From positions 10,138 to 74,137 of IMG/VR virus record IMGVR_UViG_3300009419_000013: a DNA stretch of 64,000 bases; one strand, written 5' to 3'. Within the stretch, counting starts at the first letter, position 1. The number at the start of each line of letters is the position of its first letter. The DNA is from a virus. The translations under genes were made by a program, and so were the position numbers. Below are positions 24,481-44,285 of this stretch, piece by piece. Under the pieces are notes generated by a model. The model ran no database searches. It was given only the letters and a program-made list of their open reading frames with translations, and was not told the DNA's origin.

Positions 24481-24963
24481 ATGAAACACTTAAAATCTAT
24501 ATATGAATTTGATTCTGCCTTTGGTGATAGCTATGGGTATGGAGGTGCTAATGGGGTTCTTAAAATAAACTATAAGCCATTTAGCGATTTATCGGTATCT
24601 GTAGGACAAGATCCTAATATCGAGACAACAGTGAAAGGCTCACAATTTACCATAGGTGATATAGTTATTGCTAGTCCCATAGATTCTGATTCGAAAAAGA
24701 AAGTAATTGGTGTTATAGTTAGATCATTTAGAAACCCAGATAATAAACAATATAGATATTTTATACAAGTTTATAACAAGGGTAAAGAAACTGAAAGAGT
24801 AATAGAGGTAAAATCTGATTCTATAAAATTTGCTCCAGGCGGAGAACATGGAAACATGGAAACTGTATCTAAAATGAAAGCAAGCGATGTTCCTGCTTCA
24901 GCATACAATTCAAAAACGGTATACAGTGCGAGCGAACTTGGACTTGAAACTACCGGGGGCTAA
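24481..24963 (+). CDS. Hypothetical protein, possible head-packaged SH3/KOW-like
   Basis: MKHLKSIYEF N-terminus; FTIGDIV..G.IV; GATACATA at 24468. Confidence 0.6.
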   Translation: MKHLKSIYEFDSAFGDSYGYGGANGVLKINYKPFSDLSVSVGQDPNIETTVKGSQFTIGDIVIASPIDSDSKKKVIGVIVRSFRNPDNKQYRYFIQVYNKGKETERVIEVKSDSIKFAPGGEHGNMETVSKMKASDVPASAYNSKTVYSASELGLETTGG

Positions 24964-24992
24964 GAAACCAAAACGACTTTATACGGTACAAT
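24964..24992 (+). promoter_or_regulatory. Putative middle promoter GAAAC-N18-TACAAT
   Basis: Intergenic, upstream of the UvsE-like gene. Confidence 0.55.
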
Positions 24993-25004
24993 AATAAAAA
25001 GATT

Positions 25005-25904
25005 ATGGTATCAGGAAGCAATCCAAATATTTCATATTTAGGTTTACCTAAGGCTCTAGCACTAGGAAGTTTTTATATAAGATCCCACGAGGAAATATTA
25101 ACACTTATATTAGACCTTGCAAATACAAACCTTTCAATAGGATCCAATATGATTTGCTTAGATCTTAATGAAATGGATTTTCATGAGGATTTTTTTAATA
25201 TAGTTAGTGATGAGGAAGATCCCAAATTATCATCTATAATAGATTCCATAAATTTAATATTAAACAAAAATTCAATTAGAGTATCATTCTTTATAGGAAA
25301 GGAATACTTTATGGGTAGCCAATTGGAGGGTGTTAAGGAATCAACGGTAAGAGTGATAAATTCAATCTCCGCCCTACTGGACTTAATTGGTGTGGATTAT
25401 CCTTCGATAATAATTAGGGTTGGATCAGCTTACGGTAATAGAAAGCAAACGATGTCCAATTTCTGTAGCCGAATAAAATTATTAGACAAAAATGCGGTAG
25501 ATAAATTATGTGTTACTAATGACGAAAAACCAAGTCTATTTTCTGTGACAGATTTACTTACTGGAATATATTACGAAACTAAAATACCCATATGTTTTAG
25601 AACATTGGCTCATCATTTTAATAACGGTGGATTAAGTATAAGAGAAGCAATGTTTTTGAGTTCGTCCACCTGGAAGAATGAACATATACCATTTTTTATA
25701 CATTCAGAATCATCGGATGTCAATGATGATGGAATCTCCCTTTCACCTAATCCTTCAGCGTATTTAAAAAATAGAATACCAACTTTTGGTCTTTCGTGTG
25801 ATATTATAATAGAATCTCCTGAGAGGGAAAATAGTTATATTCATTATATTAAAAATCAAAAATCCTTACCACCTGTTGTAATTAATAAAATATCCGGTAA
25901 ATAA
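25005..25904 (+). CDS. UV-damage endonuclease (UvsE)-like, degenerate active site
   Basis: I.VGSAYG, L.V.NDEKPSLFSV.DL, IPI.F...HH.FN.GGL, TW....P..HSES. Confidence 0.7.
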   Translation: MVSGSNPNISYLGLPKALALGSFYIRSHEEILTLILDLANTNLSIGSNMICLDLNEMDFHEDFFNIVSDEEDPKLSSIIDSINLILNKNSIRVSFFIGKEYFMGSQLEGVKESTVRVINSISALLDLIGVDYPSIIIRVGSAYGNRKQTMSNFCSRIKLLDKNAVDKLCVTNDEKPSLFSVTDLLTGIYYETKIPICFRTLAHHFNNGGLSIREAMFLSSSTWKNEHIPFFIHSESSDVNDDGISLSPNPSAYLKNRIPTFGLSCDIIIESPERENSYIHYIKNQKSLPPVVINKISGK

Positions 25905-25954
25905 TTTTTTTATATCGGAATAATAAATTAAATTTACAGCTTAATATAAATAAG

Positions 25955-26656
25955 ATGCTAAGAAAAGAAGCAATACAAAATCTACTATATTTCGATGTTG
26001 AAACTGCAGCATTGTATCCAACTTTGGAAACAATGTATAAAGAAAATTACCGATTATATCATCTCTGGATGAAGAGGGAGGAATATTATAGGGGTGCTTA
26101 TCCAGCTTTAGCTGACATGGATTCATTATCAATATACAAACAAAAGGCTGGACTTGAGCCTGAATTTTCAAGAGTTGTTTGTGTTTCGTTTGGTACTTTT
26201 ACCGAGGACGGTGACCAAAAATATGTTTCTTTTTCTGGTAATGATGAAAAGGAAATATTAAATAAAGCAAATAAGGTATTTAATAATGCCATGGCTAAAG
26301 GATGGAAACTTTGTGGCCATAATATAAAAGGATTTGATGTTCCTTGCTTAGGTAAGAGAATGATTTATAATGGTATAAATCCTTCTGGTAACCTTCAAAT
26401 ATGGGATAAGAAACCATGGGAGGTTCCTTATATGGATACTTCCGATATATTTGCATTTGGTAGTTGGATGCATCAGAAATACTTAAGTCTTGATTTATTA
26501 ACATGCTCTTTGGACATAGATTCGCCAAAGGATGATATGGACGGATCTAAGGTTAATGATGTTTTCTGGATCGATAAGGATTTTGAAAAAATAGAATTGT
26601 ATTGTGAATCCGACGTTAGAGCTGTAATGACAGTAATGGAAAAAATTTGTTTCTAA
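25955..26656 (+). CDS. 3'-5' exonuclease, PolB/DnaQ-like stand-alone
   Basis: Exo I YFDVET, Exo II GHNIKGFDVP, Exo III YCESDV. Confidence 0.88.
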   Translation: MLRKEAIQNLLYFDVETAALYPTLETMYKENYRLYHLWMKREEYYRGAYPALADMDSLSIYKQKAGLEPEFSRVVCVSFGTFTEDGDQKYVSFSGNDEKEILNKANKVFNNAMAKGWKLCGHNIKGFDVPCLGKRMIYNGINPSGNLQIWDKKPWEVPYMDTSDIFAFGSWMHQKYLSLDLLTCSLDIDSPKDDMDGSKVNDVFWIDKDFEKIELYCESDVRAVMTVMEKICF

Positions 26657-26716
26657 ATTGACGATAATTAAAAATAATAAGCTTACATAATATAATATAA
26701 AATAGCTAATACATTT

Positions 26717-26752
26717 AAAAGCTTTCCTTGATATATAGAGGAAAGCTTTTTT
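26717..26752 (+). terminator. Hairpin terminator with the late-promoter box in its loop
   Basis: aaaagctttcct-tGATATATAg-aggaaagctttt-tt. Confidence 0.7.
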
Positions 26753-26753
26753 C

Positions 26754-27569
26754 GTGAATACAGTATTAGATTTTAATGATTTTTTAAATAATAATGAGAT
26801 TACTCTTAACGAAAGAGAGAGTAGTCCATATTACCATGACGTTTTAAATCCAGTTTTCTGGACACAAGGAAAAACAAAATCTGGTGAGACCCCTTGGGTT
26901 TTTGATCAGAGAGTTAGAAGAAAACTTATTAGAATAGCTGAAGATTTTTATACAAAATTTGAAGACATTCTGGGTGATAGAGCAATAAGAGATATCCAAC
27001 TAACCGGATCATTAGCAAATTTTAACTATACAGATTTTTCTGATCTTGATGTTCATGTTCTTATTAACATGGATGGCATAGATGACGATAATCCAAAAAT
27101 ATTAAAATCCGCAATCGACGGTATTAAATTTGTATGGAATCTTAGACATAACATAACAATAAGAGGTTATGACGTTGAACTATACCTGCAAGACCAACAT
27201 GAGCCACATACTGCATCCGCATTATTTTCATTAAAAAATAATGATTGGATAAGAAAACCAGTTTATAATTTTCCGGAGATTGATGATATGGATGTGGAAA
27301 AAAAGTATTCTGCTATAGCTTCAGATATAGAGGAACTGCAGACAAGACTTATAACCACCGATATCTTACCATCAAATGCTAAAACATTATATAGCAGAGC
27401 ATCTAAATTAAAATCAAAAATCCAAAAAATGAGAAAAGAGGAGCTTGCTAAAGGTGGTGAAATGGCAATAGGAAATCTTGTTTTTAAAAAGCTTAGAAAT
27501 TCTGGATATATAGAGAAATTAATAGATTTGATCTCCAAATCTTATGATAAAATTTACACTGAAAAATAA
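26754..27569 (+). CDS. Pol-beta superfamily nucleotidyltransferase
   Basis: LTGSLAN.NYT..SDLDVHV and VELY (third acidic residue); GTG start. Confidence 0.8.
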   Translation: MNTVLDFNDFLNNNEITLNERESSPYYHDVLNPVFWTQGKTKSGETPWVFDQRVRRKLIRIAEDFYTKFEDILGDRAIRDIQLTGSLANFNYTDFSDLDVHVLINMDGIDDDNPKILKSAIDGIKFVWNLRHNITIRGYDVELYLQDQHEPHTASALFSLKNNDWIRKPVYNFPEIDDMDVEKKYSAIASDIEELQTRLITTDILPSNAKTLYSRASKLKSKIQKMRKEELAKGGEMAIGNLVFKKLRNSGYIEKLIDLISKSYDKIYTEK

Positions 27570-27576: not shown

Positions 27577-30165
27577 ATGATAATATTATTACCAGCAGGA
27601 ACTAGATATAAGATAGGGAATAATTTTCCTCTTATGACAATTCCATTAGATATGCCAAATGCACAGAGTACCTCGTTCGAGGATTTTCAGTGGTGGGCAT
27701 TATCTTCGGATTTTCAAAAATGGTTAAAAAAGAATCCTAGAAAATGGGTTGCTGAATCAAATGATCTTGAAAAATACGAGGGATCGGTTTCTGAATATCT
27801 AAAGGAAAATTACAGTTTCTTAGATCCATTGAACGATGTTAATGAATCTGACGTGTTATCGTTTGAAGATTTTTCTAGAGAAAAGATGGTTTTTGAAGAC
27901 GAGAAAGGTGATGCAGATAGCGCAGAGTATAAGGAAGCCATAAAATTTCATTTTGCATACAATAGTTTAAAAAGTAAGGGTAAAATAGTTGATTCAATGA
28001 CCGCATCGGATATCAAGAAAGGTGACGATAAAGCGGTTTTCCTATTATTGGAGGATCCTGCTAATGGTGAAAACATGCTGGAAACAATGAAGGCCTATAG
28101 AATGACAGGCTATATCGATGTTGACGGTAAATCTAAGATAAGACTTATTGATGTTAGCGAGATGCTACCTGGTGGACCAATAAAAGACGACGAGAAAGCT
28201 GAAGATGTTATAGGAAAGGTTGTACAGGATGCTGCAGTAATAGCTGCTGCTGGGGGTGTGGGACTTGTTCTTTATAGTGCTTTAAAAGTTGCTGGTGGGG
28301 GATTAGCTGCTAGAGCTTTACTTAAAACAATTCAAGGATTTTCTCCCAATGCAGGGAAAGCAGCAGCTTCCGCTGCTCCTTCACTACTTGGTAAAATAAG
28401 AGCTGGCGGAGTTAAAGGCATTAAAAGTCTATGGGGAGGTGTTAAAGATATCGCTACATTAAAAAATACGAGGGCTTTGGCAACCAGGGGATTTAAAGGT
28501 GCTAAGGCAGCTTATACTTTAGGTAAAGTTGGAGTTGGTGGTGCTATTAAGGCTTTTGCTAAAGGAGTAACGAGAGGCGGTAGCAAACTAGGAAGTAGAG
28601 CAATACCTTTTGTTGGTGAGGTTCTTATGATTATAGATGCTGTTGGATCTACTTGGAATTGGTATAGTGATAATCAAGCTCCTAGATATGGTGAAGTCGA
28701 ATCTTTTGCAAAAAATGAAATGGATCCTTCTAAGTTGCCAATTGGCGTACCTATTACTGTATGTTGGTCACAACCAGCTAGTGGTGCTTTGGGTACAGGG
28801 ATAAGCTTCCTATTCAGTAATGAAACTAGAACTACTGCGGAACTAATTAAGATAGGTGACAAGAATGGTGAATCAATATTTATAATGACTCAGATTAATT
28901 CTAAGGAGGTTCAGAAATCCCTTGCAAGCCACGATCTAACATTGATATCTTTGGATAACAGTAACGTGGTTAATGATCAGGCAGAATCTAAAGATGGAGT
29001 ACTTGCTCAAATAGGTACGGCTATCCAAAGAACTTTTGATAATGAGGATCTTGATTTTAAAATATCACATATAGATGGAATAAATGATATTGCCGCTATG
29101 TTTAATTTTCAGGGTATTTGTGACTGGAGCGAATTTGAAACCGCATATCAGTCAGCTGGTGATCAATTGATAGTGGTAGATCCTAATGCTCCTGAAACCT
29201 ATGAATTTTACTACAAGGACAATGAAGAGAATGTGGTAAATGTCTCTGGTAGAATAGTATCAAATGATGAACTTAAGAATTCAAGTCCGGAAGAACTTCA
29301 AAATATATTCTATTCCGAGGAAATAGAAGGATCAGCAGAAAAGAAGAATGAGGAACACGATAATTCTGATATTCTAGGTGAGCTAATTAATGAATCAACT
29401 ATGATAACTAGTTTTAATGACTTCAGTAATAGACTATCAGGAATATATGAGAATAAGGACGTTGATTCTAAGAAGGAAAAAACAACTCTCGAATTAAGCC
29501 GTGAGCAATCCAGTACTGCAGCTGAGGTTGCTGTCTATGTTGTTACGGAGAGAGAATATGCAGATCCCGAGCTTAGAAAATATAAGGTTGGTGTATTCAG
29601 AAACTTTATGATAAATGCAGACGATTATAAGGCTAAAGTTAATTCACCGATTGAGGTTGAGACAAATACTGTTAATGAAGATATAGATGAGCCTAAAAGA
29701 GGAGTTTATGTATTTAAAAAAGAAGCAGATAAACCTAAACCTAAACCTAGCGAAGAAGAGGAAATTAAAAGAAATACTCAGCCTTTGACTGATGAGGATC
29801 CTAAGAATGACGATCAGAAGGTGAAGGATGATTATTATATAACTGTTGATCCTAAGGACGTAGTTATAAAGGACAAAAAGAATTCGACCGTAATAAGGGA
29901 TAACAGTTTTGCTGGTGGAATTAATCTGGTTGATACCTTCCTTACCGATAAGGATAAGGAGATTATGAATATAGCAAATTGGAAAGCAGTAACATATGCC
30001 AAGGCATCACTAGATACAAGAGGTGACATAATAGAGGTTAAAGTAAAGAATAAATTTGCACCATTCGGAGATAAGGTAAGAAAGTTTAAAGTATCTGATG
30101 GTGAAGCATTTGAAATAGCTAAAAAATTTGCTACTGAAGTTGAAAGTAGAATAAAATATCAATAA
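27577..30165 (+). CDS. Large hypothetical protein, possible ejected / membrane-active virion protein
   Basis: 862 aa; central basic Gly/Ala-rich hydrophobic region flanked by acidic domains; internal NES..SF.DF motifs. Confidence 0.55.
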   Translation: MIILLPAGTRYKIGNNFPLMTIPLDMPNAQSTSFEDFQWWALSSDFQKWLKKNPRKWVAESNDLEKYEGSVSEYLKENYSFLDPLNDVNESDVLSFEDFSREKMVFEDEKGDADSAEYKEAIKFHFAYNSLKSKGKIVDSMTASDIKKGDDKAVFLLLEDPANGENMLETMKAYRMTGYIDVDGKSKIRLIDVSEMLPGGPIKDDEKAEDVIGKVVQDAAVIAAAGGVGLVLYSALKVAGGGLAARALLKTIQGFSPNAGKAAASAAPSLLGKIRAGGVKGIKSLWGGVKDIATLKNTRALATRGFKGAKAAYTLGKVGVGGAIKAFAKGVTRGGSKLGSRAIPFVGEVLMIIDAVGSTWNWYSDNQAPRYGEVESFAKNEMDPSKLPIGVPITVCWSQPASGALGTGISFLFSNETRTTAELIKIGDKNGESIFIMTQINSKEVQKSLASHDLTLISLDNSNVVNDQAESKDGVLAQIGTAIQRTFDNEDLDFKISHIDGINDIAAMFNFQGICDWSEFETAYQSAGDQLIVVDPNAPETYEFYYKDNEENVVNVSGRIVSNDELKNSSPEELQNIFYSEEIEGSAEKKNEEHDNSDILGELINESTMITSFNDFSNRLSGIYENKDVDSKKEKTTLELSREQSSTAAEVAVYVVTEREYADPELRKYKVGVFRNFMINADDYKAKVNSPIEVETNTVNEDIDEPKRGVYVFKKEADKPKPKPSEEEEIKRNTQPLTDEDPKNDDQKVKDDYYITVDPKDVVIKDKKNSTVIRDNSFAGGINLVDTFLTDKDKEIMNIANWKAVTYAKASLDTRGDIIEVKVKNKFAPFGDKVRKFKVSDGEAFEIAKKFATEVESRIKYQ

Positions 30166-30199
30166 TTGGAAAAGTATTAAAATTATTTGATTTAGAATT

Positions 30200-30211
30200 G
30201 ATATATAAATA
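30200..30211 (+). promoter_or_regulatory. Putative late promoter (GATATATA overlapping TATAAATA)
   Basis: Upstream of the protease-capsid operon. Confidence 0.65.
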
Positions 30212-30233
30212 ACATAAAAAACACAATTAAGAA

Positions 30234-32204
30234 ATGCCAACAACCCAAAAGCTTAATGAAGATTTAGTTTTCATCCTTGAAAGACAGGAGAGAGTACTTG
30301 AATCTAAGAAGACAGATTCGGAGGATGATTATGTTCTGGAAGGTATAGCAGCTGTTTTCGGAAAAGAAAACAATAATAATAGAATATACGAGGAAAATGA
30401 ATATTTGCCTCATTTAGACTATCTTAAAGACAAAATCGCACAGAAGAGACTGGTTGGCGAATTGGATCATCCTGAAAAATTCGACGTTTCTCTTAAGAAT
30501 ATTTCTCATATTATAGAGGATCTCGCATATGATAAGGATAAGAGAGAACTTAAAATAAAGGTTAGACTTCTTGATACACCAGCTGGTATTATAGCTAAGA
30601 AATTAGTTGATGCCGGAGTACCACTTTCAATATCATCAAGAGCAGCTGGTTCAGTTGGTAATGATAAAAAGGTTCAGATCAAGAAAATATTTACTTATGA
30701 TTTAGTTGCTGATCCTGGTTTTCAGGATGCACAATTGGAAAGAGTATATGAAAGTGCAGGATTTAGTTTCGAAGACGTTTATAAAATGAGAAACAATACA
30801 ATTTTAAACGGATTAACTTGCGTTAATGAATCTTTCGGTCTTAAAAATGAATCTTCAATGAAGATATATAAAGTTGAAAATAACGAAGAATTCAACAATC
30901 TCGTAACAAAAACAGAAAAAAATAAAGAAATCCTTATGGAGAATAAAGAATTTGTTACTGCTGATGACCTAAATCAATATTCTATTTTCTTGAAGAAAGA
31001 AATGGATTCAATGAAATCGGCTATAGCAGAAATTAACGAAAAGAGAGACTCAATTCAAGAATCTGAAAAAACATCTAATGATGATGTTGTTACAGCATTG
31101 GAAGAAAGAGTAGCTAAATTGGAAAAATATTCTGAGTACTTAGCTGAAAACTTAGATAACGCAATTAAGTATGGAGAATACGTTGCTGAAAATCTAGATC
31201 AAAACATAACATATTCTAAGTATTTAGCTGAGAATTTGGATAAAAACATTTCTTATTCTAAATATTTAGCTGAGAATGTTGATAAATCTATATCTTATTC
31301 TGAATATGTAGCGGAGAGTGTAGATAAGAATATAGAGTATTCTAAATATTTAGCTGAAAAGGTAGATCAAAATATTTCATATTCTGAATACTTAGCTGAA
31401 AATGTTGATAATAGTATTTCTTACAGCGAGCACTTAGCAGAAAACTTAAATAAAGGTATTGCTTATACTGAATACGTTGCAGAAAAATTAAACGATGGTA
31501 TCGAATATGCCGAGTATTTAGGAGAAAATCTAAATAAAAATATTCAATATTCAGACTATTTAGCTGAAAATCTAAATAAAGGTTTAGATTATTCTGAGTA
31601 TTTAGCTGAAAAAGTTAAAAGATCTATATCTTACAGTGAATATATAGCAGAAAGCTTAAATAATTCTGATATGAAATCAGTAGGACAAGATTTAATGGAA
31701 AGTGCATCAGTATCAGCATCAGCAGGTTTAAACGAATCTGGATTTGCAGGTAATTATGACAACCTTTCAGACAAAATTGATAGTTTGGTAGAATCAGTTA
31801 AAACACAAAAAACTGAATCAAATATAAACGAAGCTTCAAAATCATTTGAAGCGCCAGCCAACACACAAAAGGCACAAGAATCAGCTCTTAATGAAAACGA
31901 GAGCACAACAAAAACAGGTCTTAAGTTTATTGACGAAATGCCTGAAGAATTTGCACAAGTTTGGGAATCACTTAATGAAGGACACAAGCAATCAATCGTT
32001 GCTCAAAGTAACTTCTATAGATTAGATTCTCCTTACCAAATCAAAAACTTCTGGTCAACAAGACAACTTGGAACCAAAACAGTTGGAGTTCAAAAATTGA
32101 ACGAGAGCGAAGAAACAGTGCCAAGTGCAACAACACAAGCTTATTCAAGCGATTACATGGCTTCGATAGCTGCTGCACTAGAGCAAAAATTTCCAAAAAG
32201 ATAA
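30234..32204 (+). CDS. gp21: Prohead protease (gp21-like) fused to scaffold/core (gp22-like)
   Basis: LEGI, N.N.RIY, GELDHP, SHII, LLDTPAG, ISSRAAGSV, YDLVADP; C-terminal coiled coil with 14-aa repeats. Confidence 0.9.
   Translation: MPTTQKLNEDLVFILERQERVLESKKTDSEDDYVLEGIAAVFGKENNNNRIYEENEYLPHLDYLKDKIAQKRLVGELDHPEKFDVSLKNISHIIEDLAYDKDKRELKIKVRLLDTPAGIIAKKLVDAGVPLSISSRAAGSVGNDKKVQIKKIFTYDLVADPGFQDAQLERVYESAGFSFEDVYKMRNNTILNGLTCVNESFGLKNESSMKIYKVENNEEFNNLVTKTEKNKEILMENKEFVTADDLNQYSIFLKKEMDSMKSAIAEINEKRDSIQESEKTSNDDVVTALEERVAKLEKYSEYLAENLDNAIKYGEYVAENLDQNITYSKYLAENLDKNISYSKYLAENVDKSISYSEYVAESVDKNIEYSKYLAEKVDQNISYSEYLAENVDNSISYSEHLAENLNKGIAYTEYVAEKLNDGIEYAEYLGENLNKNIQYSDYLAENLNKGLDYSEYLAEKVKRSISYSEYIAESLNNSDMKSVGQDLMESASVSASAGLNESGFAGNYDNLSDKIDSLVESVKTQKTESNINEASKSFEAPANTQKAQESALNENESTTKTGLKFIDEMPEEFAQVWESLNEGHKQSIVAQSNFYRLDSPYQIKNFWSTRQLGTKTVGVQKLNESEETVPSATTQAYSSDYMASIAAALEQKFPKR
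31125..31670 (+). repeat. About 13 x 42-nt (14-aa, xYSEYLAENLDKNI) coding tandem repeats
   Basis: Visible in the translation of 30234..32204. Confidence 0.92.
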
Positions 32205-32220
32205 AAAATAAAAACAAATC

Positions 32221-33912
32221 ATGAAATTGATCAACGAACAAGAAATCTATGATACATGGTCTCCGATTATCGAGAGCAAAGCTGGTATCACAGAAGAAGG
32301 AAAAAAAGGATGGTTGACTAAATATTGTCATTATCATTCATTAAACGAGTCTGCAGGTGCTTATAACACTTTAGGAGTTGTTAACGGTATGGGTGCAGTT
32401 GCGCCACCAGCATACCCAGGTATGGCATCTTTCCAAGGTGGTAATGCTAACGCTGGTTTCTATAACACAGGAAATCAAGGATCTGGAGATAAATTCCCAT
32501 CATTATTGCCATTAGCTATTCAGGTAGCTGCTAAGACTGTAGGTTTTGATATCGTTCCTGTTATCCCTATGTCAGGACCAACTGGTATCTTATCTTACTT
32601 AGATTACGTATATTCAGGTGGTAAAATTGCTGGTGCTACATCTGCTACTTCAGGAGATTCATTAGCTAAAGCTCCTACAATGATTAAATTCCCAGTTGCA
32701 CAAGGATCTTCTGCAGGTCTTACTGGTGCTACTGCTGGAACATTCGCAGTAGGTACTGTTTACACAGTTACTAATGGAGGTGTATTAACACTTAAATTCG
32801 TAGGTTTATCAAGAATCGATGGTTTCCCAATCTTCGAAATCGAAAACATTACTGATGGTTACAATGTTGCTGGTATTATTACAGCTTCAGGAAGTTTCAA
32901 CGTTGCTACTTCTACAATGTTTACTGCAGGTTCTGCACAATTAGTTAAAGCTTTAGAAGATCATATCCAAGGATTCTCTGGTGCTGGTTTCAACAACACC
33001 GCTGACTGGCAAGGTCCTTACGTAGATGGTACTAAAACTTACAACCCTATGTTAAGAGGAGTTGGTGAGTCTACTTACTACAACTCAATGGGTCTTTCTA
33101 CTTTCACTAAATTCGTGGAGGCTGAAACTTTCCAAGTTGCTGCTTCAGTTACAACTGAGCAAATCCAAGATCTTAACAAACAATTCGGTATCGACGTTAT
33201 CTCAATGATCGAGAACGCATTGGTTAATGAGGTTTCTCAAGCAATTAACAAACACATCTTATCAAGAGCATTCGCTTTAGGTTGGTCTAACCATAACCAA
33301 TTCTTCAATGTTGAAAACCAAAACCTTAACTTGAACTTAGTTCTTGGTGGTGGTGCTGGTACAACTTTAGCTTATGTTAACAAATCAGATGCTACACAAT
33401 CTATGCCTATCCCAGCTGGACCAGCTACAGGAGGTTACGAGAACTTATCAACTTTACAAAGAAGATTATTCTCAAGAATCCTTGCAGGTGCTAACGTGGT
33501 AGCTAATAGAGGTAGAAGAGGTCCTGCTAACTTCGTAGTAACGAATGCAGCAGTTGCAAGTGCACTTCAAGATATTTCTCAATTCACTTTCGCTCCATTC
33601 TCTAATACACTTACTCAAAATAACGGTACTTTATACCCTGTAGGTTCTCTTGCTGGTATGACAGTTTACGTAGATCAGAATATGAACTATAGCGATACAA
33701 GAGTATTAATTGGTAGAAAAGGTGGTGATGATGAACCAGGATTAAAATTCATGCCTTACATGATGGCAGAATCGATTCAGACTATCTCTGAAGGTACAAT
33801 GTCACCTAAAATCGCGGTTAAATCTAGATACGCTTTAGTAGAAGCTGGTTTCTTACCTGAAACTATGTACTTAACATTATTCGTTAACGTACCTGCTGGT
33901 GGTTTAGCATAA
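32221..33912 (+). CDS. gp23: Major capsid protein (T4 gp23-like)
   Basis: V.PMSGPTG, T.EQIQDL, L.NEV...IN, RGRRGPANFVV, G.LAG.TVYVD, FMPY, KSRYAL; strongly biased codons. Confidence 0.93.
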   Translation: MKLINEQEIYDTWSPIIESKAGITEEGKKGWLTKYCHYHSLNESAGAYNTLGVVNGMGAVAPPAYPGMASFQGGNANAGFYNTGNQGSGDKFPSLLPLAIQVAAKTVGFDIVPVIPMSGPTGILSYLDYVYSGGKIAGATSATSGDSLAKAPTMIKFPVAQGSSAGLTGATAGTFAVGTVYTVTNGGVLTLKFVGLSRIDGFPIFEIENITDGYNVAGIITASGSFNVATSTMFTAGSAQLVKALEDHIQGFSGAGFNNTADWQGPYVDGTKTYNPMLRGVGESTYYNSMGLSTFTKFVEAETFQVAASVTTEQIQDLNKQFGIDVISMIENALVNEVSQAINKHILSRAFALGWSNHNQFFNVENQNLNLNLVLGGGAGTTLAYVNKSDATQSMPIPAGPATGGYENLSTLQRRLFSRILAGANVVANRGRRGPANFVVTNAAVASALQDISQFTFAPFSNTLTQNNGTLYPVGSLAGMTVYVDQNMNYSDTRVLIGRKGGDDEPGLKFMPYMMAESIQTISEGTMSPKIAVKSRYALVEAGFLPETMYLTLFVNVPAGGLA

Positions 33913-33932
33913 TCCTAACCAACTTAAATATT

Positions 33933-33971: not shown

Positions 33972-33979
33972 GATATATA
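33972..33979 (+). promoter_or_regulatory. Putative late promoter GATATATA
   Basis: Just after the terminator, before ATG 34005. Confidence 0.62.
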
Positions 33980-34004: not shown

Positions 34005-35147
34005 ATGAAAAATCTACCTTCATTCGAGGAATATAAAAAATATGATCATTTTCTGGAAAGAACTGAAATCGATTTAGTGACTGAACTTAGATCACTTGAA
34101 ACTGCTGATCCTTATCATTCGGTTAATGAGGGACAAATTATGAATTCATTAAAAAATACTTTGTCCAAGTTCTTTTTAGGTTCAGCATCCAGGGTAAATA
34201 TGTTGGATGAGGCTAGAAAGATAATACTTGAGCTTGAGCTTGATTTAATAGAAAAAAGGCACGAATTTGAATTAAGTGTGGATAAAATAAATTCTCAGAT
34301 TGATGAATTAAGTAAAACTGAGGAGAATGATAAAGTTGTTGCACTTGGTAAGGAAAGGGAGGCTAAAGCTAAAGAAATGGAGGCTTACATAAAGGCTCAG
34401 AGGCTTAAAATTAAAAAATCTAAGGAAGTTGCTAATAAATTAGTTGACGGTAATGCCAGAAGAAGAGAATATCTTATGGCAGGATATTCTGAGGACGAAA
34501 TTGCTATTGCTGAATTGGAATATAAATTAGCTAAGGAAAGATCGGAGGAATCATCGGTTCTTAAAGATTATGAAGATAAGATAAAAACTGCCAAAGCTGA
34601 ATATGAAGAAAAAAGCTCGGATCTTAAATCAAAAATGGAGGATGTAGAGAAGGAAAAGGAGGATGATGAATCCACCGGTAACTTAAAAGTCGATCCACGT
34701 GAGGAGAAGAAAAAGATTTCAAGTAGAAAGGGTAGGGATATCATACAGAGAAAAAATGAATTAGAGAAGGATATAGCTGATATCAGATCTTCTATTGAAA
34801 GAAAATTGAATAGGTTATCAGATAAAATAAGCAAAGCAAAAGCACCAATCAGTGCTAGATCTATGAATCCATATAAGATGGATCTTTTAGAATTGGCATC
34901 CTCTCTTGATTCAAAAACAAATCTTCTGACGCTATTTAGAAATTTGGGTAAAACAGAGAATGAAATAACTAACAGTCTTAAGGGTGAGTCTGATTTTACT
35001 AAAATGGCAAATCAGATAAATCAAGTTATAATCGACGGTAATGATGCTAATTCTGGTACTAAGAAGATTATAAGCGAAGTATTTTCTGGAGGTAATACAG
35101 TTACTGTTGACATTATAAATTCAGCTAAGAAAAAACTAAATAAATAA
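34005..35147 (+). CDS. Coiled-coil protein, putative internal head protein
   Basis: MKNLPSFEEY N-terminus; E/K-rich helices. Confidence 0.6.
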   Translation: MKNLPSFEEYKKYDHFLERTEIDLVTELRSLETADPYHSVNEGQIMNSLKNTLSKFFLGSASRVNMLDEARKIILELELDLIEKRHEFELSVDKINSQIDELSKTEENDKVVALGKEREAKAKEMEAYIKAQRLKIKKSKEVANKLVDGNARRREYLMAGYSEDEIAIAELEYKLAKERSEESSVLKDYEDKIKTAKAEYEEKSSDLKSKMEDVEKEKEDDESTGNLKVDPREEKKKISSRKGRDIIQRKNELEKDIADIRSSIERKLNRLSDKISKAKAPISARSMNPYKMDLLELASSLDSKTNLLTLFRNLGKTENEITNSLKGESDFTKMANQINQVIIDGNDANSGTKKIISEVFSGGNTVTVDIINSAKKKLNK

Positions 35148-35153: not shown

Positions 35154-36044
35154 ATGACTCTTAAATTTAAAGAATGGAATGAGCTGAATGAAGCTAATAT
35201 CTTTGATAAAGTTAAAGATTGGTTTAGTGTTAATTTCGGAGGTGCTCTAAATAAGATGGAGAATCTAATTACTGAATATAGATCTGCCGAGGAGGAGTAT
35301 ATCGACGAATGGGAAAAGGTTAACATAGAATTGGATAAACTGGATCTGCAAAAGGACCAAACAAAATCAGACCCTGCCGAATATAAGAAGATCGAGAGAT
35401 ATATTCAGAGAAATCAAGAATTGCTTTCTAATATGAAGAAAGCTCATGTTAAGAAGATAGATCACATAATGGTCAAAGTAAAATCTCTAATAAATGATAA
35501 TGCTAAACTTAGAACATATTGGGAGGTTAATAAAACCAGAGTTGATTCGGAGATAGCAGAGGATATGTACAAGAGATCAAAGGATCTTGCCGACGAGACA
35601 TTATCTAGGGATCTTTATAATAAATACAAGGATTCGGTACTAAGAGCAAAGAAAAAGGACGAAGAATTTAAGGAAAAATATGGTGATCTATTAAAAGGAT
35701 CTTATAAGAAGACAACACCAGCTCAACAGAAATCTACTTCAAAATCAGGTATATCTGAAGCCACATTAGATCTTTATATAACTATGTCGCTTAGCGAGTT
35801 TACCAAGGAGATAGAATCTCTGGATCCTAAGGAGAGAAAGGAATTGACAAATCTTCTAATAAAGAACCGAAATGAGCTATATGTTCAGATGGATATGGAA
35901 AGGGAAAATATAAACTCCTTGATATCTAAGGGCCAATTAACAAAGGAAGAGGCTTCTAAGGAACTAAAAGACATCAGAGAGAAACACATGAATGATATAA
36001 GAGAATTAAGATCTAAAATAACAATATCCAGAAAGAATGCTTAA
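35154..36044 (+). CDS. Coiled-coil protein, likely paralogue of 34005
   Basis: MTLKFKEWNELNE; NE(A/G).I...K...S..F.G is shared with the upstream ORF. Confidence 0.6.
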   Translation: MTLKFKEWNELNEANIFDKVKDWFSVNFGGALNKMENLITEYRSAEEEYIDEWEKVNIELDKLDLQKDQTKSDPAEYKKIERYIQRNQELLSNMKKAHVKKIDHIMVKVKSLINDNAKLRTYWEVNKTRVDSEIAEDMYKRSKDLADETLSRDLYNKYKDSVLRAKKKDEEFKEKYGDLLKGSYKKTTPAQQKSTSKSGISEATLDLYITMSLSEFTKEIESLDPKERKELTNLLIKNRNELYVQMDMERENINSLISKGQLTKEEASKELKDIREKHMNDIRELRSKITISRKNA

Positions 36045-36291
36045 TTTCAAAGATTTTAAAATGAATGAGATCGAAGGGAAGGGTAGGGTTCAAGAAATTA
36101 AACTCGAAATAACAAAAAAATTCGATGATATAAAGGAAGCTAAAGCTTCTAAAAAGGAGGGTGATGTTAATTCCGAAGTTACCAGTATAGATAAACAAGC
36201 ATTAATATATGCTGAAATTTCTGGCCTCATGAAAGAATTATCTGCAGAGATTAAAAAATTACCAAAGGAGGAGTCCTCTAATATATACTAA
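36037..36291 (+). CDS. Small helical protein
   Basis: MLNFKDFKMNE N-terminus. Confidence 0.6.
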   Translation: MLNFKDFKMNEIEGKGRVQEIKLEITKKFDDIKEAKASKKEGDVNSEVTSIDKQALIYAEISGLMKELSAEIKKLPKEESSNIY

Positions 36292-36293: not shown

Positions 36294-38786
36294 ATGATGA
36301 ATAAGAAGAACCCATATATTAATAATCCAATAGCTTCAATGCTTTTTGAAAGCTATAATTCAGGCATATTGGAAAATGAAAAAGTTGATGCATTATTAAA
36401 TAAAATAGCAGATAATGCTCTTAATACATTTAAAATATTAACATTTGATCTAGCTCCCAAAAGGGATAGAAATCCTGATGTTATGAGAGTTAAGTTATCT
36501 GATATATCTAACTCCACTAATGTTAAGGAGCTTACCGCAAAACTTGTGGATTATTCTGATGATAATGAATTATCAAATTCTAAATATGCTGAGGCTAAGA
36601 GACTTTATTTACAGTCATTAAATAAGTTTGCGGAAGCTTTAAATAGAGCTTCAGAGATTTCTAAGAGTAAGGATGAGGTCATTTTAAAAAGCTTTAAATT
36701 GGCTCCTATGAAGCTCCAAAGTAGTCTTGATAATATTGCTAAACAGGCTGAGGACGAAGCAAAAATAAAAGCAACTAGTGAATCTTTTGAATATCTAGGC
36801 GATGCTGTAAATGAATCTATATTTACTGGATACAGAGGAAGGATAGAAAAACTAAAAAAATTGTTAACTAATCTTATTTCATCTGCGGAAGGAAAAAATC
36901 AGAAGAATGGATATGGTAGGGATTGGAAAAGAACTTTCATTGATCTTGACGAGAAAAGAAAAGTTCTTGATACAACCAGATCTGGATTTGGTGAGAAGGA
37001 TAAAAAATCATTGGATGAACTGGAGAAGCAAGTAAATAAATTTCAGGATGAATTTAATAACGTTTTAGTTCAAACTGCTAATAGATCACTACAAGCTCTA
37101 GAGGATGATGAAGAAATTTATACGACATATAGCGATGTTGGTGAGTTAACAAATGTAGCATTAGATTTGTTAACAAGAGCAAAAGCACAATACACACTAG
37201 CTGATAAGGAGATTGTTGATGATTATGATGCTCAGGAGTCAACATTCAATAAAACTTTATTTCCTTTGAAAAGAGGAGACAAGGACTCTGATAAAAAAAT
37301 GAAAGGGAGTGGACTTGTTTATGCTATACAGAATGCTATATCGAATGGAATACCATCAGCCGGTAAATTAATAAGATCTAAAGGTGGACCTAATGGAATA
37401 TATGGACCTGCTACAACATCTGTTATCACAACCATACAGAAGCTATCAGGTAATAAGAATGCCAATGGCGAAATTGATAAGAATTTACTGGAGGATATAA
37501 TAGCATCTGACTGGGTTTCTGAAAAAGATAAAAAAGCAATACAGAAGTCGATAGATTCAGCTAGAATAAAAATGAATGAATCAGCTTTTGGTAGTTTTGA
37601 TTTTATTGGAATAGACTCTTTCATATCTTCAATAAATGAGGGAAAGATAGTAATTAATAATTCTGAATTTGAGAAGGAACTATCTAATCAATATAAAGAG
37701 GTCAAGTCAAAAACATCATCGACTGAGGGATCAGGTGTTAAAAAGTCCGCCAATTCTAGCGGTACTGTTAAGGAACTTGCTAAAGCGCTAAGACAAAATT
37801 ATAGTCTTAAAGTCGAGTCTGATGATTTTCTTAAAACCGATGGTTCGCTTAAGGCATCATTCAGTCCTCAGTTTATTGGTGCCTGGAACAAGGCAGTAAA
37901 TAAGGTTGAAAAAACGAAGGATGATTATTCATATTTCTTTTTCTCTGGTGGAGTGTATCCGATTAAATTATCGTCAACTTCACTTAAGAATCCTGCTAAC
38001 TGGAATAAATGGGCGGATTCAAGACAGCTAAAGGGATTGGGTAATGATGATGCGGTTGATTTCCTTAGTGATTATCTTAGAAATTGGAAAACTTTTGGTA
38101 TGGTTAAACCTGATAGTAGATGGAATGGTATAAAATCTGTGATTAAAGTGAGAGAAGATTCTGATCTTGCATCAGCTTATGAAATGATGGAGACATCAAT
38201 ACAGAATAAAGGAATTCCTTTCATTGATTTTGATAATTTAAAGGGTGATATAACCAAGGCATTTAATATGGCTCTACAGAAGTCTGAGAAATCGCCAGAT
38301 CTTGGAGTGGAGGATTTCACTGCTGTTAATGATTTTATGGTTATGTTATCTAATGCTGTATCCTTCGATGGTAAAAAATTCATAAGCTGTATAAAGTGGA
38401 TACATGACCATGTGCTGGGTGAGACGGTAGCCAAAAGGATATCTAAGGATTCCATTTACATGGAGAGAAGTCTATCTGATGATGAAATACTAAGTTATGT
38501 TGGAAGTGATATTAAATTGGTTAAGAGATCATCCATAGGTTCCGGATGGGGAAAAAAATTAGCTGATAGCAAGAATAGCCCTAGCGAGGATCTTTCTGGA
38601 TTTGGTCCTTTAATATATTTGAAAGATACTGATTCGAAATATAAAAAAGTACTTGGAGTAAATACTTTCTATATTGCAGCTGATATTTACCCTTCTCTTA
38701 AATCACATATTAGAAGAATGAATGCTACTAACTTTGACCAGATACCTCAATTTAAACCCTTTAAATGCGTGGATGTTAATCTCTAA
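36294..38786 (+). CDS. Large protein with a peptidoglycan-binding-like domain
   Basis: FPLKRGD...V.AIQ...NGIYGPAT..VI..IQ......NG.ID matches the PG_binding_1 pattern. Confidence 0.6.
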   Translation: MMNKKNPYINNPIASMLFESYNSGILENEKVDALLNKIADNALNTFKILTFDLAPKRDRNPDVMRVKLSDISNSTNVKELTAKLVDYSDDNELSNSKYAEAKRLYLQSLNKFAEALNRASEISKSKDEVILKSFKLAPMKLQSSLDNIAKQAEDEAKIKATSESFEYLGDAVNESIFTGYRGRIEKLKKLLTNLISSAEGKNQKNGYGRDWKRTFIDLDEKRKVLDTTRSGFGEKDKKSLDELEKQVNKFQDEFNNVLVQTANRSLQALEDDEEIYTTYSDVGELTNVALDLLTRAKAQYTLADKEIVDDYDAQESTFNKTLFPLKRGDKDSDKKMKGSGLVYAIQNAISNGIPSAGKLIRSKGGPNGIYGPATTSVITTIQKLSGNKNANGEIDKNLLEDIIASDWVSEKDKKAIQKSIDSARIKMNESAFGSFDFIGIDSFISSINEGKIVINNSEFEKELSNQYKEVKSKTSSTEGSGVKKSANSSGTVKELAKALRQNYSLKVESDDFLKTDGSLKASFSPQFIGAWNKAVNKVEKTKDDYSYFFFSGGVYPIKLSSTSLKNPANWNKWADSRQLKGLGNDDAVDFLSDYLRNWKTFGMVKPDSRWNGIKSVIKVREDSDLASAYEMMETSIQNKGIPFIDFDNLKGDITKAFNMALQKSEKSPDLGVEDFTAVNDFMVMLSNAVSFDGKKFISCIKWIHDHVLGETVAKRISKDSIYMERSLSDDEILSYVGSDIKLVKRSSIGSGWGKKLADSKNSPSEDLSGFGPLIYLKDTDSKYKKVLGVNTFYIAADIYPSLKSHIRRMNATNFDQIPQFKPFKCVDVNL

Positions 38787-40905: not shown

Positions 40906-40913
40906 GATATATA
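40906..40913 (+). promoter_or_regulatory. Putative late promoter GATATATA
   Basis: Before ATG 40932. Confidence 0.6.
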
Positions 40914-40931: not shown

Positions 40932-41594
40932 ATGCAGAGAATACTTAGACTAGATCAATTTAAGAGCGATGCTATATCTTTAGAGGAGAATATAGACATT
41001 TCAGGAATACTTGGTAAGGTTATACCATCACTGGGAACTGGATTTATCAAAACACTTAAACAGAAATTAGCAGCAGTGCTGATGGAAAAAATAGGGGTTA
41101 AAGAAAATTCAAAATTTTCTATTATTATACAGGAACTAGTGGATTCAATAGAATTTAAAGAAATGCCAGGCTTAATAACTGGTGAAAATGCAAATGCAGA
41201 ATTTCTAGCACCTAGACTAGCTCAGGCTGTGCAAGAATATATACAAAGAAAAGGTATGGATTCTTTAATCGAGCCTTTTGGTTTGGAACCTAACGGATGG
41301 ATGTATTCGACCATTAGAGAATCATTACAAGGTGAATTAGGTAAAGAAAAATTAACAGCATTTTTCATGTCTGCATTTTCTGATGAACCAATAGGAGCAA
41401 AAACTATCTCCTCATTAAGCTCTAAAGAAAAAGAAGCATTTAAGAGTGAATTTTTACAAAAAGCTTCCAAATCTTATCCAACTTCAGCTTCCGCAAGAAA
41501 TTTAACTTCTGATAGTAAGGAAAATGGTGGTGGTGGAGTATTAGATACTCTATCTGGAATTTGGGACGGTTTTGTTTCAGGTGCTAAAAAATAA
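40932..41594 (+). CDS. Hypothetical protein
   Basis: 220-aa ORF; MQRILRLDQF..ISLEE N-terminus. Confidence 0.65.
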   Translation: MQRILRLDQFKSDAISLEENIDISGILGKVIPSLGTGFIKTLKQKLAAVLMEKIGVKENSKFSIIIQELVDSIEFKEMPGLITGENANAEFLAPRLAQAVQEYIQRKGMDSLIEPFGLEPNGWMYSTIRESLQGELGKEKLTAFFMSAFSDEPIGAKTISSLSSKEKEAFKSEFLQKASKSYPTSASARNLTSDSKENGGGGVLDTLSGIWDGFVSGAKK

Positions 41595-41690: not shown

Positions 41691-41701
41691 AATTATAGAA
41701 T

Positions 41702-42049
41702 ATGAACGTACAGGACGTAGAAAAAAGAGAGGTTCTTGATTATAAACAATTTTTAGGTAAAGTCCATGATGATACTTATAAACCTTTCGCAGCGGACAAT
41801 CAAAAAGATTCTAGTGATAGAACGGGTCTTTCAACAATAAAGAGAGAACCAGCTTTTGATTTTGTTGGTTATGCAGATTCGGTATTTGGTAATAAATCCA
41901 AAATAGATGTACCTGCTTATAGAATAGATATGGATGGAAAGCAGGGAGAAGTAGATGCTCAGCAATTTGGAAATATGTTTAATATGGATACTAGTGAATC
42001 GAATGATAATTCTGAATACACTTTTATAAAAAATCTTAGTGATTTTTAA
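41702..42049 (+). CDS. Hypothetical protein
   Basis: 115-aa ORF. Confidence 0.65.
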   Translation: MNVQDVEKREVLDYKQFLGKVHDDTYKPFAADNQKDSSDRTGLSTIKREPAFDFVGYADSVFGNKSKIDVPAYRIDMDGKQGEVDAQQFGNMFNMDTSESNDNSEYTFIKNLSDF

Positions 42050-42064
42050 ATTTATCATTAAAAT

Positions 42065-42100
42065 AAAAAAAAGGCTTCGTTCTAAAACGAAGCCTTTTTT
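42065..42100. terminator. Bidirectional intrinsic terminator
   Basis: A-tract, aaggcttcgtt-ctaa-aacgaagcctt, T-tract; between convergent genes. Confidence 0.88.
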
Positions 42101-42824
42101 ATGATATTTTCTCTATAAACTTTTCTTTTGCTAACCTATATATTTCCGAGTTTTCCTCGAAATTTTCATATATCTGAATTACGTATAGACTCGGTGATGA
42201 TTTTTTTTCTAGATTGGACTCAGCCAATATTTCATGATAAATGTATTCGTAATTCAAAGAAAATTTAGAATTCTTTAAATATATTCTTTTTAATATACAT
42301 ATTTCCTTATCCCCCTCATCGGTTTTCATCGTTAATGATCCTTGCCAATGATAAGGTATGATTTTATCATTTATCATGTTTCTGATTATAAGAATTCCAG
42401 AATTTGATTTTTTGTTTAAATTCTTTTCTATTTCTGTTTCAACCTCAAATATCTTTATCTTTGATTCCTCATCCTTTAGTATATCCATGCATATTTCTGA
42501 ATATTCATATAATGTTTCCAGTGAGCTATCTACTATATTTAATATCTTTTCCCTGGTTGATTCGTCAAGAGCATTAAATTTAAAATTGACTATAATATCT
42601 CTATCCTCGGGTTTCCAACCATTAAATGATTTTAACTCCACCGAATTTTTTGATTTAAAGTTTGTTAATATTCTAAGTAATCTAGAAACCTCCCTTAGAG
42701 TGGAGTAGCAATTCTCGGAGTTTAGATTTTTACTGAGCTCTTTTAGATAATCCAGTAGAATATACTCCTTATGCTCCTGATCGATTGGCTCCTTTATGAA
42801 CCAAATTGGACTTATATTTTTCAT
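42099..42824 (-). CDS. Hypothetical protein (only credible minus-strand gene)
   Basis: No long + strand gene here. Likely start MKNISPIWF; PID.EHKEYILLDYL; converges on the bidirectional terminator. Confidence 0.75.
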   Translation of the reverse strand: MKNISPIWFIKEPIDQEHKEYILLDYLKELSKNLNSENCYSTLREVSRLLRILTNFKSKNSVELKSFNGWKPEDRDIIVNFKFNALDESTREKILNIVDSSLETLYEYSEICMDILKDEESKIKIFEVETEIEKNLNKKSNSGILIIRNMINDKIIPYHWQGSLTMKTDEGDKEICILKRIYLKNSKFSLNYEYIYHEILAESNLEKKSSPSLYVIQIYENFEENSEIYRLAKEKFIEKIS

Positions 42825-42878
42825 TTCTTTTAAATGGAATCTTATTTTATATATTTGATTAGATAAAAAGTTACGAAT

Positions 42879-42886
42879 GATATATA
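42879..42886 (+). promoter_or_regulatory. Putative late promoter GATATATA (divergent AATATATA on - strand at 42848-42855)
   Basis: In the divergent intergenic region. Confidence 0.55.
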
Positions 42887-42910
42887 CAATAACTAAAATA
42901 AAATTCAAAT

Positions 42911-43342
42911 ATGGCTAAAATATATGATTATGCTGCATTCGCTGGTAGTTCCAAAGGTGCCAAATATAACGATTACTCATTTGGGGTTGAATTAAAATAT
43001 ATTGATATAGACATATATGATAGACCGGAGGAATATTCAAATATTTCTGACGCTAAAGTTTTCATTGATTATTCGGTTGATCTTATTGTTAATAAAGCTG
43101 GAATAGAGGGGATGAATTTTAATATTAGCTCTGTTGAACTTGAATTTATGGTTGATGATCACCCAAACGAGGATAAGGAATTTGACATAGACCTAATACC
43201 TGGTAAAACTATAGACTTTAGTCAGCTTAAAATTGACACTAAGGAAAATACAATACCTTCATATCCAGCAAATGTATCCATTAATATGAGAAACTCGACG
43301 GATCCTAAAAATTTCGAAATAACCGTAGAGTTCGGAAAATAA
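42911..43342 (+). CDS. Hypothetical acidic beta-rich protein
   Basis: 143-aa ORF. Confidence 0.65.
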   Translation: MAKIYDYAAFAGSSKGAKYNDYSFGVELKYIDIDIYDRPEEYSNISDAKVFIDYSVDLIVNKAGIEGMNFNISSVELEFMVDDHPNEDKEFDIDLIPGKTIDFSQLKIDTKENTIPSYPANVSINMRNSTDPKNFEITVEFGK

Positions 43343-43349
43343 TTTAAAG

Positions 43350-44285
43350 ATGAGACATAGAGTAGTAAATTTTTCACAGTTTAATTTATCCGAATCCGAT
43401 ATAAATAATGAATATAACGTGCCCGGTATAAACAATTATATGACCGATGGATATGAAATATCTGCATTAGATTGTACCGAATCGGAAACCGAGGATGGTA
43501 AAATATTTATCAGAAAAGATACCGGAACATCTGTGCTATTATCTTTTGGTGACACTGAGTGTGATATTTGGATACCCAAGGATTCAATTGAAATAAAAAA
43601 ATTGGATGGTGCTTATATATTGACAATATCACCTGATTCAAAATGGTTTAATCGACCTGAAAATAGAATTATAGTGGAAGACTTTATAGAGGGATTTGAT
43701 TCTTATAGAATCGATAAATCCTCTAGCAATAAGAGAAACATTGACAACGTATTTGATGACATATCAACACTATTGGATATGCTTGGTTTGAATATCAATA
43801 TTAATAATATCGAGATGATATCCGACAATGAGTATGAGATAACATTAGATACTGGAATTTTCATATCGCATAAGAGAAGAAGCAGCAGTGATATAATAGG
43901 AAATACCAAATTTTATTTGGATCCAAGTTCTTCCGTACCTGGGGTGGAGATAGTATCTACCAAAAACGGGATAAATTTAATTTCCGATATTCCTGATATC
44001 TCCAAGAATGAGATAGAGACGGATTTCGAAAAAATTAAAAATAATCCATATCACAGATATTTATTAAAAAGACCTATCGGACTGGAAAGTAATAGTGACA
44101 GGGAGAACCTATACTCCCACTATCTGGAGGTTGCAAATTCCAATTTTAAGAATGATTCTAAATCGGAAGACCCTAATATATCGGACTCCGGAAGATCGGG
44201 AATGGCATACATTAGAGGTATTAAGAAATTAATATCCGAATACATCTCTCCTGAAAAAATTAGGGAGATATCTCCCGATCTATAA
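43350..44285 (+). CDS. Hypothetical protein
   Basis: MRHRVVNFSQFNLSE N-terminus. Confidence 0.65.
   Translation: MRHRVVNFSQFNLSESDINNEYNVPGINNYMTDGYEISALDCTESETEDGKIFIRKDTGTSVLLSFGDTECDIWIPKDSIEIKKLDGAYILTISPDSKWFNRPENRIIVEDFIEGFDSYRIDKSSSNKRNIDNVFDDISTLLDMLGLNININNIEMISDNEYEITLDTGIFISHKRRSSSDIIGNTKFYLDPSSSVPGVEIVSTKNGINLISDIPDISKNEIETDFEKIKNNPYHRYLLKRPIGLESNSDRENLYSHYLEVANSNFKNDSKSEDPNISDSGRSGMAYIRGIKKLISEYISPEKIREISPDL

Follow-up and report, generated by a model that had tools for sequence, protein, structure and literature searches.

The 64,000-nucleotide stretch analysed here (the window; positions 10,138 to 74,137 of IMG/VR record IMGVR_UViG_3300009419_000013) lies within a 74-kb viral contig of roughly 33% G+C from an uncultured phage of about 370 kb. 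Its genes are nearly all on one strand and end in standard stop codons (62 TAA, 4 TGA and 2 TAG). About nine proteins of its head-gene region carry an N-terminal tag like the capsid targeting sequence (CTS) of phage T4, seven of them strongly and two weakly. The T4 tag and its use are textbook knowledge (PMC3012670, PMC5694885, PMC8442874): the peptide MKTYQEFIAE (PMC8442874; reviewed in PMC3012670) is borne by the internal proteins IPI, IPII, IPIII and Alt and is removed by the prohead protease gp21 (Mullaney and Black 1996, as cited in PMC5694885). An initial annotation of the window, made from the letters alone, had proposed that about ten proteins, some of them enzymes, are loaded into the head through such a tag, matured by the prohead protease and injected as pre-made effectors.

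We refer to genes by their first nucleotide; all lie on the plus strand unless stated otherwise, and an arrow marks a predicted cut. The strong tags belong to 24481, 26754, 34005, 35154, 36037, 40932 and 43350, and the weak ones to 41702 and 42911. All the N-termini quoted in the initial annotation are present in the sequence at their places, with the qualification that the motif of 41702 does not stand at the very N-terminus. A second aromatic residue falls at residue 7–11 in eight of the nine proteins. Among orthologues (26–63 loci per family out of 80 fetched; 43350 lies beyond the fetched flanks) the motif is retained in all eight of the unrelated families that were checked, while neighbouring residues and linkers drift.

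The only enzyme among the nine, where the initial annotation spoke of some enzymes, is a Pol-beta-type nucleotidyltransferase of 271 residues (26754–27569), which has a GTG start and is preceded by a late-promoter-like box, GATATATA, at 26730–26737 (plus strand). Its N-terminus, MNTVLDFNDF..LNE20, has the tag aromatics at F7 and F10 and is likely cut after LNE20, and its orthologues follow the form M..VLDF..FvLNE↓.., as in M..VLDFSRFVLNE. Searches of PHROGs and Pfam with the nine tagged window proteins returned a single match, that of 26754 to phrog_36119 (1e-40; a phrog of unknown function), and otherwise sub-threshold noise; the GS...DxD motif is present. In the AlphaFold2 model (predicted local distance difference test, pLDDT, of 79.5) the tag is a short helix at residues 7–13, and the cut site falls in the least confident stretch (residues 18–22, below 50), a disordered linker ahead of the fold. 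The top Foldseek matches were CD-NTases and aminoglycoside nucleotidyltransferase (ANT) enzymes (E = 4e-5, with a template modelling score of only 0.23), a placement that would hold at the superfamily level only.

Three of the strong members follow the capsid gene. The protein of 34005–35147 (380 residues, 39% charged, scaffold- or core-like) starts MKNLPSFEEY, has a conserved VNE42↓G and lies behind a box at 33972; an orthologue in its family reads MKNIPSFNEF...VNE. The 296-residue protein of 35154–36044, likewise 39% charged, starts MTLKFKEWNELNE (MTLKFKEWNELNE13↓A), with orthologues such as MILKFEQWNQINE↓A, and the 84-residue protein of 36037–36291 starts MLNFKDFKMNE11↓I, with its aromatics at 4 and 7 in the register of the T4 tag, and has orthologues MLKFKEFVLNE↓A and MLSFDEFRLTE↓A. 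With 39% charged residues these three look like scaffold or core proteins rather than the effectors they had been taken for. Of the remaining strong members, 24481–24963 encodes 160 residues starting MKHLKSIYEF (orthologues MKHIKSINEF(F)D), for which AlphaFold2 gave a low-confidence model (pLDDT 54) with residues 1–49 disordered and a small predicted beta core; 40932–41594 encodes 220 residues starting MQRILRLDQF..SLEE19↓N, behind a box at 40906, with orthologues MSRIKSFEDFSLNE↓D and MSKIKKFEDF..IQE↓G; and 43350–44285 encodes 311 residues starting MRHRVVNFSQFNLSE (MRHRVVNFSQFNLSE15↓S), with the orthologue MRHRVVKFSQFNLSE in the sister genome introduced below.

A hydrophobic-x-Glu site, part of the original proposal, is missing from the two weak members. 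In 41702–42049 the motif VLDYKQF stands at residues 11–17, behind a conserved MNVQDVEKRE, and 42911–43342, with a box at 42879, starts MAKIYDYAAF with aromatics at 5, 7 and 10; neither has any [LIVM]-x-E, and they are therefore doubtful members.

Interspersed with the tagged genes are those of a prohead protease and a capsid protein, which indirectly supports a capsid-targeting reading. The prohead protease gene (30234–32204, box at 30200) encodes a protease of about 230 N-terminal residues fused to a scaffold-like arm. It matches Pfam S77 (PF03420; 1e-7, 31.9 bits against a cut-off of 27) and phrog_207 (3e-37), and has the motifs GELDHP and SSRAAGS in common with the annotated protease of the Tenacibaculum phage PTm1; a sequence search against the PDB gave no match. 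The protein has a conserved LNE9, eight hydrophobic-N-E sites and 37 [LIVM]xE sites. Its arm contains 13 tandem units of 14 residues (nucleotides 31128–31652), each with a tag-like heptad Y-S-E-Y-L-A-E, and the number of such units is 13 in nearly all orthologues, which range from 59% to 99% identity. The fixed repeat count suggests a length-measuring role for the arm. At 5.6 [LIVM]xE sites per 100 residues (mean 2.0), the arm is close to the T4 scaffold protein gp22 (5.9).

Immediately downstream, 32221–33912 encodes a gp23-type major capsid protein (Pfam Gp23, PF07068; 7e-40, 138 bits), whose alignment with T4 gp23 starts at residue 6. Four hydrophobic-x-E sites fall within residues 1–43 and none within the next 50, and the predicted propeptide cut, YCHYHSLNE43↓S44 (nucleotides 32323–32352), is invariant across all orthologue N-termini listed. 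The predicted capsid maturation site has the same form as the putative cut sites associated with the tags.

Upstream of the protease, 27577–30165 (own box at 27505) encodes a protein of 862 residues with a Gly/Ala-rich hydrophobic middle, which is likely a three-part head polyprotein. The internal motif copies reported for it are there, at residues 88–102 and 604–616 (nucleotides 27838–27882 and 29386–29424), each directly behind x-N-E. Orthologues as distant as 28% identity still carry these cassettes, which have the form hydrophobic-x-E↓S..V(L/I)SF.DF and lie near residues 90 and 610. A search of the ESM Atlas was uninformative for this protein (scores of at most 0.84).

To place the tag in a genomic context, we used the whole sequence of a complete sister genome (G001; 373,467 bp, terminal repeats, 529 open reading frames (ORFs), 96% capsid identity). 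IMG/VR holds at least 80 related loci, on contigs of up to 434 kb and with capsid identities of 71–96%, and among named phages the closest capsid proteins come from the uncultured 462-kb phage LR756500 (45%) and the Lak megaphages (roughly 40%). In G001, 44 of the 427 proteins of at least 80 residues match a pattern of aromatic-x-x-aromatic within residues 2–16 followed by hydrophobic-x-E, compared to 12.5 ± 3.4 for shuffles that kept the composition of the same N-termini, 15.6 for internal windows and 6 for reversed N-termini. Scanning the genome with a tag model, as had been put forward at the outset, was done with a position matrix: a first version without leave-one-out was overfitted and was replaced by a leave-one-out version, which gave 32 members with about 2.6 false ones expected. 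Some 20 further proteins look tagged by eye. The early figure of about ten is therefore adequate for the window and too low for the full genome, in which we estimate that roughly 30–50 proteins, or 6–10% of genes, are tagged.

The consensus of these proteins is M-x-(K/H)-(I/L)-K-x-(F/Y)-x-(D/E/S)-(F/Y), often followed by (L/I)-N-E. The second aromatic is residue 10 in 21 of the 32 members (and in three more if an internal Met is the true start), a hydrophobic-x-E site follows the tag in 28, with mostly L or I at P3, and Glu stands three residues past the second aromatic in 12, about fivefold above the background of 6.9%. The tag has no signal-peptide-like hydrophobic stretch. Synonymous codon usage inside the tags is that of the genome (for example, TTT/TTC at 58/42 versus 66/34), which places the constraint on the peptide.

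No 8-mer is more enriched than GATATATA in the 80 nucleotides upstream of G001 genes (63 genes versus 3.9 expected), and this box precedes the protease gene, a portal gene and the sheath and tail-fibre genes; we therefore take it as a late promoter element. It stands before 18 of the 32 tagged genes and 45 of the 497 others (odds ratio 12.9, p = 3e-10). Weaker tags are seen in about 15 of the latter 45, and a further eight tagged genes follow a boxed gene at a distance of no more than three closely packed genes. At the sequence level, this association agrees with the earlier view that the tagged proteins are late, and by it the tagged genes are classed as late genes. The window itself has 15 boxes, 14 of them on the coding strand and almost all just upstream of genes. 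The earlier statement that most tagged genes sit behind a box holds in part: four of the nine have their own (boxes at 26730, 33972, 40906 and 42879), 24481, 35154, 36037 and 43350 share a unit with a boxed gene upstream of them (24481 is one gene downstream of the box at 23914), and no box was seen within 108 nucleotides upstream of 41702.

In 11 G001 genes the box ends only 4 nucleotides before the start codon, compared with 16–31 nucleotides for most others; an example in the window is the box at 23914–23921 ahead of 23926. Late mRNAs from these closely spaced promoters may be leaderless or nearly so.

Two further genomes delimit the tag. PTm1, a cultured, AT-rich phage of Bacteroidota, shows no excess (8 matches versus 8.2 ± 2.7); it has the same kind of protease–scaffold fusion and x-N-E sites, and its scaffold lacks the tag-like heptad. 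In the first 381 kb of LR756500, the part analysed, we found 44 matches versus 17.1 ± 3.7 (37 versus 10.2 ± 3.1 with a stricter pattern), and the tag is tighter and more uniform (MKYIKEYEEFLNE and variants). AT-rich phages thus do not bear the tag at their N-termini as a rule, and it is common to at least two deep branches of huge phages. Within this part of LR756500, roughly 30 proteins start MKYIK(E/S)YE(E/D)F(L/I)xE, and the head-gene neighbourhood of that phage has no tagged genes.

The likeness to T4 can be put in numbers. On a matrix trained on G001 tags only, the T4 peptide MKTYQEFIAE scores 8.9 bits, which places it in the top 0.033% of 94,263 internal positions. Although the matrix was trained on N-terminal tags only, the scaffold repeats fill 6 of the top 100 of these positions, a typical scaffold unit reaches the top 0.085%, and the first cassette of 27577 ranks second; the capsid site of the window scores negative. 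In both systems a short N-terminal peptide has aromatics three residues apart with an acidic residue between them and then hydrophobic-x-Glu, and in both it is borne by otherwise unrelated late proteins of a phage that encodes a gp21-family protease and a gp23-family capsid. The tags here differ in that they are usually three residues longer, with aromatics at 7 and 10 compared to 4 and 7, and have mostly Asn at P2; in that roughly 30–50 proteins would carry them compared to a handful; and in that they also occur inside polyproteins directly after cut sites. Moreover, the arm fused to the protease here is built of 13 tag-like units, which are absent from T4 gp22.

Beyond the window, the tagged proteins of G001 include two SLT transglycosylases, a CHAP peptidase and an OmpA-like wall-binding protein, together with a RimK-type ATP-grasp enzyme, an adenylate kinase, a DUF5661 protein and many small unknown proteins; Pfam assigned no family to 23 of the 30 that were searched. 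Proteins that are ejected along with the DNA typically include wall hydrolases, and the tagged SLT, CHAP and OmpA proteins fit ejection proteins that breach the cell wall.

The observed motif is conserved at a fixed position, exceeds chance expectation, is linked to late promoters and occurs together with the protease and capsid genes. We propose that it is a T4-type capsid-targeting propeptide that is removed after hydrophobic-x-Glu, on a scale far larger than in T4, and we consider this reading likely. Of the initial proposal, then, the T4-like tag with its prohead protease site gains from the S77 protease, the gp23-type capsid, the late genes and the T4-tag score. Late genes would be expressed from GATATATA promoters and yield proteins whose first 10–20 residues form a short amphipathic helix, M-x-(K/H)-(I/L)-K-x-Ar7-x-(D/E)-Ar10 (Ar, aromatic), followed by hydrophobic-x-Glu (often L/I/V-N-E). 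This peptide would draw the protein into the core of the assembling prohead, built around the protease and its arm of 13 tag-like units (YSEYLAE), on which the tags may dock. Once the shell is closed, the S77-family protease would cut after Glu and remove the tags, and would also split 27577 at its cut-and-tag cassettes, shred the scaffold arm and trim the capsid protein at LNE43. The matured cargo would remain in the head. In the window it would comprise the scaffold- or core-like proteins, the large hydrophobic polyprotein and the nucleotidyltransferase, and elsewhere the SLT and CHAP wall hydrolases, the OmpA-like wall binder, the ATP-grasp enzyme, the adenylate kinase and the small proteins; at least part of it may exit with the DNA. 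The phage thus probably packs many proteins into its capsid.

Several findings weigh against this reading. As cargo, the adenylate kinase and the ATP-grasp enzyme are unexpected, and 41702 and 42911, as doubtful members, have no cut site. The tail sheath (plus strand, running from the contig upstream of the window to window position 1833), which starts MANKVKIDYSQF, and a portal paralogue (16838–18454, plus strand), which starts MAGFLDF, both fit the loose motif; neither is expected head cargo, and the loose pattern is therefore not fully specific. The scaffold-docking step is drawn from likeness, and the T4 scaffold gp22 has no such heptads. We also considered whether tags and scaffold repeats vary together, as mimicry of the scaffold would have it, and rejected this: in LR756500 the tags are very uniform and the scaffold repeats degenerate (three strict heptads), so there is no close co-variation of the two.

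A bolder version of the capsid-targeting reading, which we hold only tentatively and judge rather doubtful, would see in the heptad aromatic-x-acid-aromatic-hydrophobic-x-Glu an ancient 'address and cut' code that extends from T4 to phages of 370–460 kb. Cargo tags would dock by imitating one unit of the fixed 13-unit array of the protease arm, and 6–10% of the proteome (wall hydrolases, nucleotidyltransferase, adenylate kinase, ATP-grasp enzyme and cassette-cut polyproteins) would travel in the head and be delivered with the DNA.

Parts of the same evidence could be read differently. The heptad aromatic-x-x-aromatic-hydrophobic-x-Glu might be an extended recognition site of the prohead protease, such that tagged proteins are recruited as its substrates without separate docking on the scaffold, and many of them would act only transiently in assembly or in the core and be degraded instead of being delivered. 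The same form indeed occurs at the maturation site of T4 gp23 (FGSFLTE↓A) and in the T4 tag (YQEFIAE), and it recurs 13 times in the scaffold arm with its gp22-like density of [LIVM]xE sites (5.6 versus 5.9); 34005, 35154 and 36037 are charged and scaffold-like. However, the T4 gp23 site in register reaches only 3.4 bits (top 0.5%) and the capsid site of the window is negative on the same matrix, and the tag is carried by folded enzymes (nucleotidyltransferase, SLT, CHAP and adenylate kinase). T4 internal proteins, moreover, enter the proheads of protease-defective mutants, which also counts against this alternative, and we think it unlikely.

Still less probable, in our view, is that the tag is an address or a recognition signal for some other late process, such as modification by an enzyme, handling by a chaperone or transport to the membrane or periplasm, with the Glu sites being incidental. 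Although SLT, CHAP and OmpA-like proteins work outside the cytoplasm and a metabolic kinase is among the tagged proteins, the tag lacks the hydrophobic stretch of a signal peptide, Glu is enriched at a fixed spacing and internal cassettes join a cut site to a tag. The tagged genes of the window are also interleaved with the protease and capsid genes, the tag resembles that of T4, and a leader function tied to a radical-SAM enzyme is rejected since G001 has no gene for one (PF04055 found no match in the complete genome, and matched in all control genomes).

That look-alike N-termini arise by chance, composition or a translation effect, through AT-rich codons (K, N, I, F and Y) favoured near gene starts in a genome of 33% G+C that lacks Shine-Dalgarno sites, is very improbable: the N-termini of the genome are rich in K, N and I, and first codons might matter for initiation in the 11 late genes with a box 4 nucleotides before the ATG, yet the observed 44 matches far exceed those of composition-keeping shuffles and reversed N-termini, codon usage inside the tags matches the genome, PTm1 has no excess, and both the internal copies and the exchange among F, Y and W are kept at the protein level.

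Other systems offer looser parallels. Heads of phiKZ-like giant phages contain tens of protein species, many of which a T4-related protease (phiKZ gp175, SPN3US gp245) cuts after x-x-Glu (PMC5694885, PMC10052503), the motif being S/A/G-x-E or A-x-E (PMC5694885). Their propeptides, thought to direct incorporation, mostly exceed 100 residues and lack a common consensus (PMC5694885, PMC10052503), whereas the tags here are 10–20 residues long with a clear consensus and hydrophobic-x-E sites, unlike long propeptides of that type. Encapsulin cargo-loading peptides and the N-terminal regions of the phage P1 Dar proteins (PMC9024508) are alike in that a short terminal peptide suffices to direct unrelated cargo proteins into the interior of an HK97-fold shell. 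Encapsulin peptides differ in being mostly C-terminal, binding the shell directly and not being removed, and the P1 Dar system in having neither a shared short consensus nor a protease step, so the likeness is functional only. Our literature search found no paper that connects capsid targeting sequences with huge or metagenomic phages, and the accessible part of the 'Moraphage' paper, which describes genomes of up to 307 kb, has nothing on head targeting (PMC12619734). New here are the whole-genome count, the promoter link, the codon test, the PTm1 control and the extension to LR756500, as well as the fixed 13-unit scaffold array, the conserved internal cassettes and an objective T4-tag score.

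Some features of the window stand beside these results. An 830-residue head-module protein without a clean N-terminal tag (36294–38786) has three hydrophobic-N-E sites, one of which is followed by a tag-like SAFGSFDF (nucleotides 37569–37604), a cassette found in some orthologues only. The 723-residue product of the ORF at 11331–13502 (plus strand), which lies behind a GATATATA box at 11301, lacks an N-terminal tag. Its eight hydrophobic-N-E sites equal the number in the protease and are roughly seven times the average of the genome, so it may be a further head protein that undergoes heavy processing. The protease gene contains a GATATATA box of its own at 30863–30870 (plus strand), between the end of the protease domain and an in-frame ATG near 30936. 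In the RNA runs only contigs of relatives at 85–95% identity were available, from which transcript starts and levels are not readable and whose uncovered parts are uninformative. One metatranscriptome contig of 3,796 nucleotides (run X19, depth 78, from a relative about 92% identical) matches window positions 30135–33921, exactly the protease and capsid genes; its end at the capsid stop is a weak hint of one abundant late transcript, as contigs cannot prove transcript ends. Just two ORFs were called on the minus strand of the contig. The longer, which alone is of substantial size, encodes 269 residues at 42099–42908, between tagged genes in the lowest-G+C stretch (29.5%), and is conserved in G001. 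No tRNAs were found at the window end.

Huge phages are almost all uncultured, and if the tag works as in T4 it would provide a sequence rule that lists the packaged, and possibly injected, proteins of this clade; proteins so listed are candidates for host takeover in the first minutes of infection and for counter-defence. The T4 loading mechanism would then reach far beyond the T-even phages and be expandable about tenfold, and the tag would be a natural, portable means to load foreign proteins into very large capsids. Should the 'address and cut' reading be true, the injected proteome of uncultured huge phages would be readable directly from sequence.

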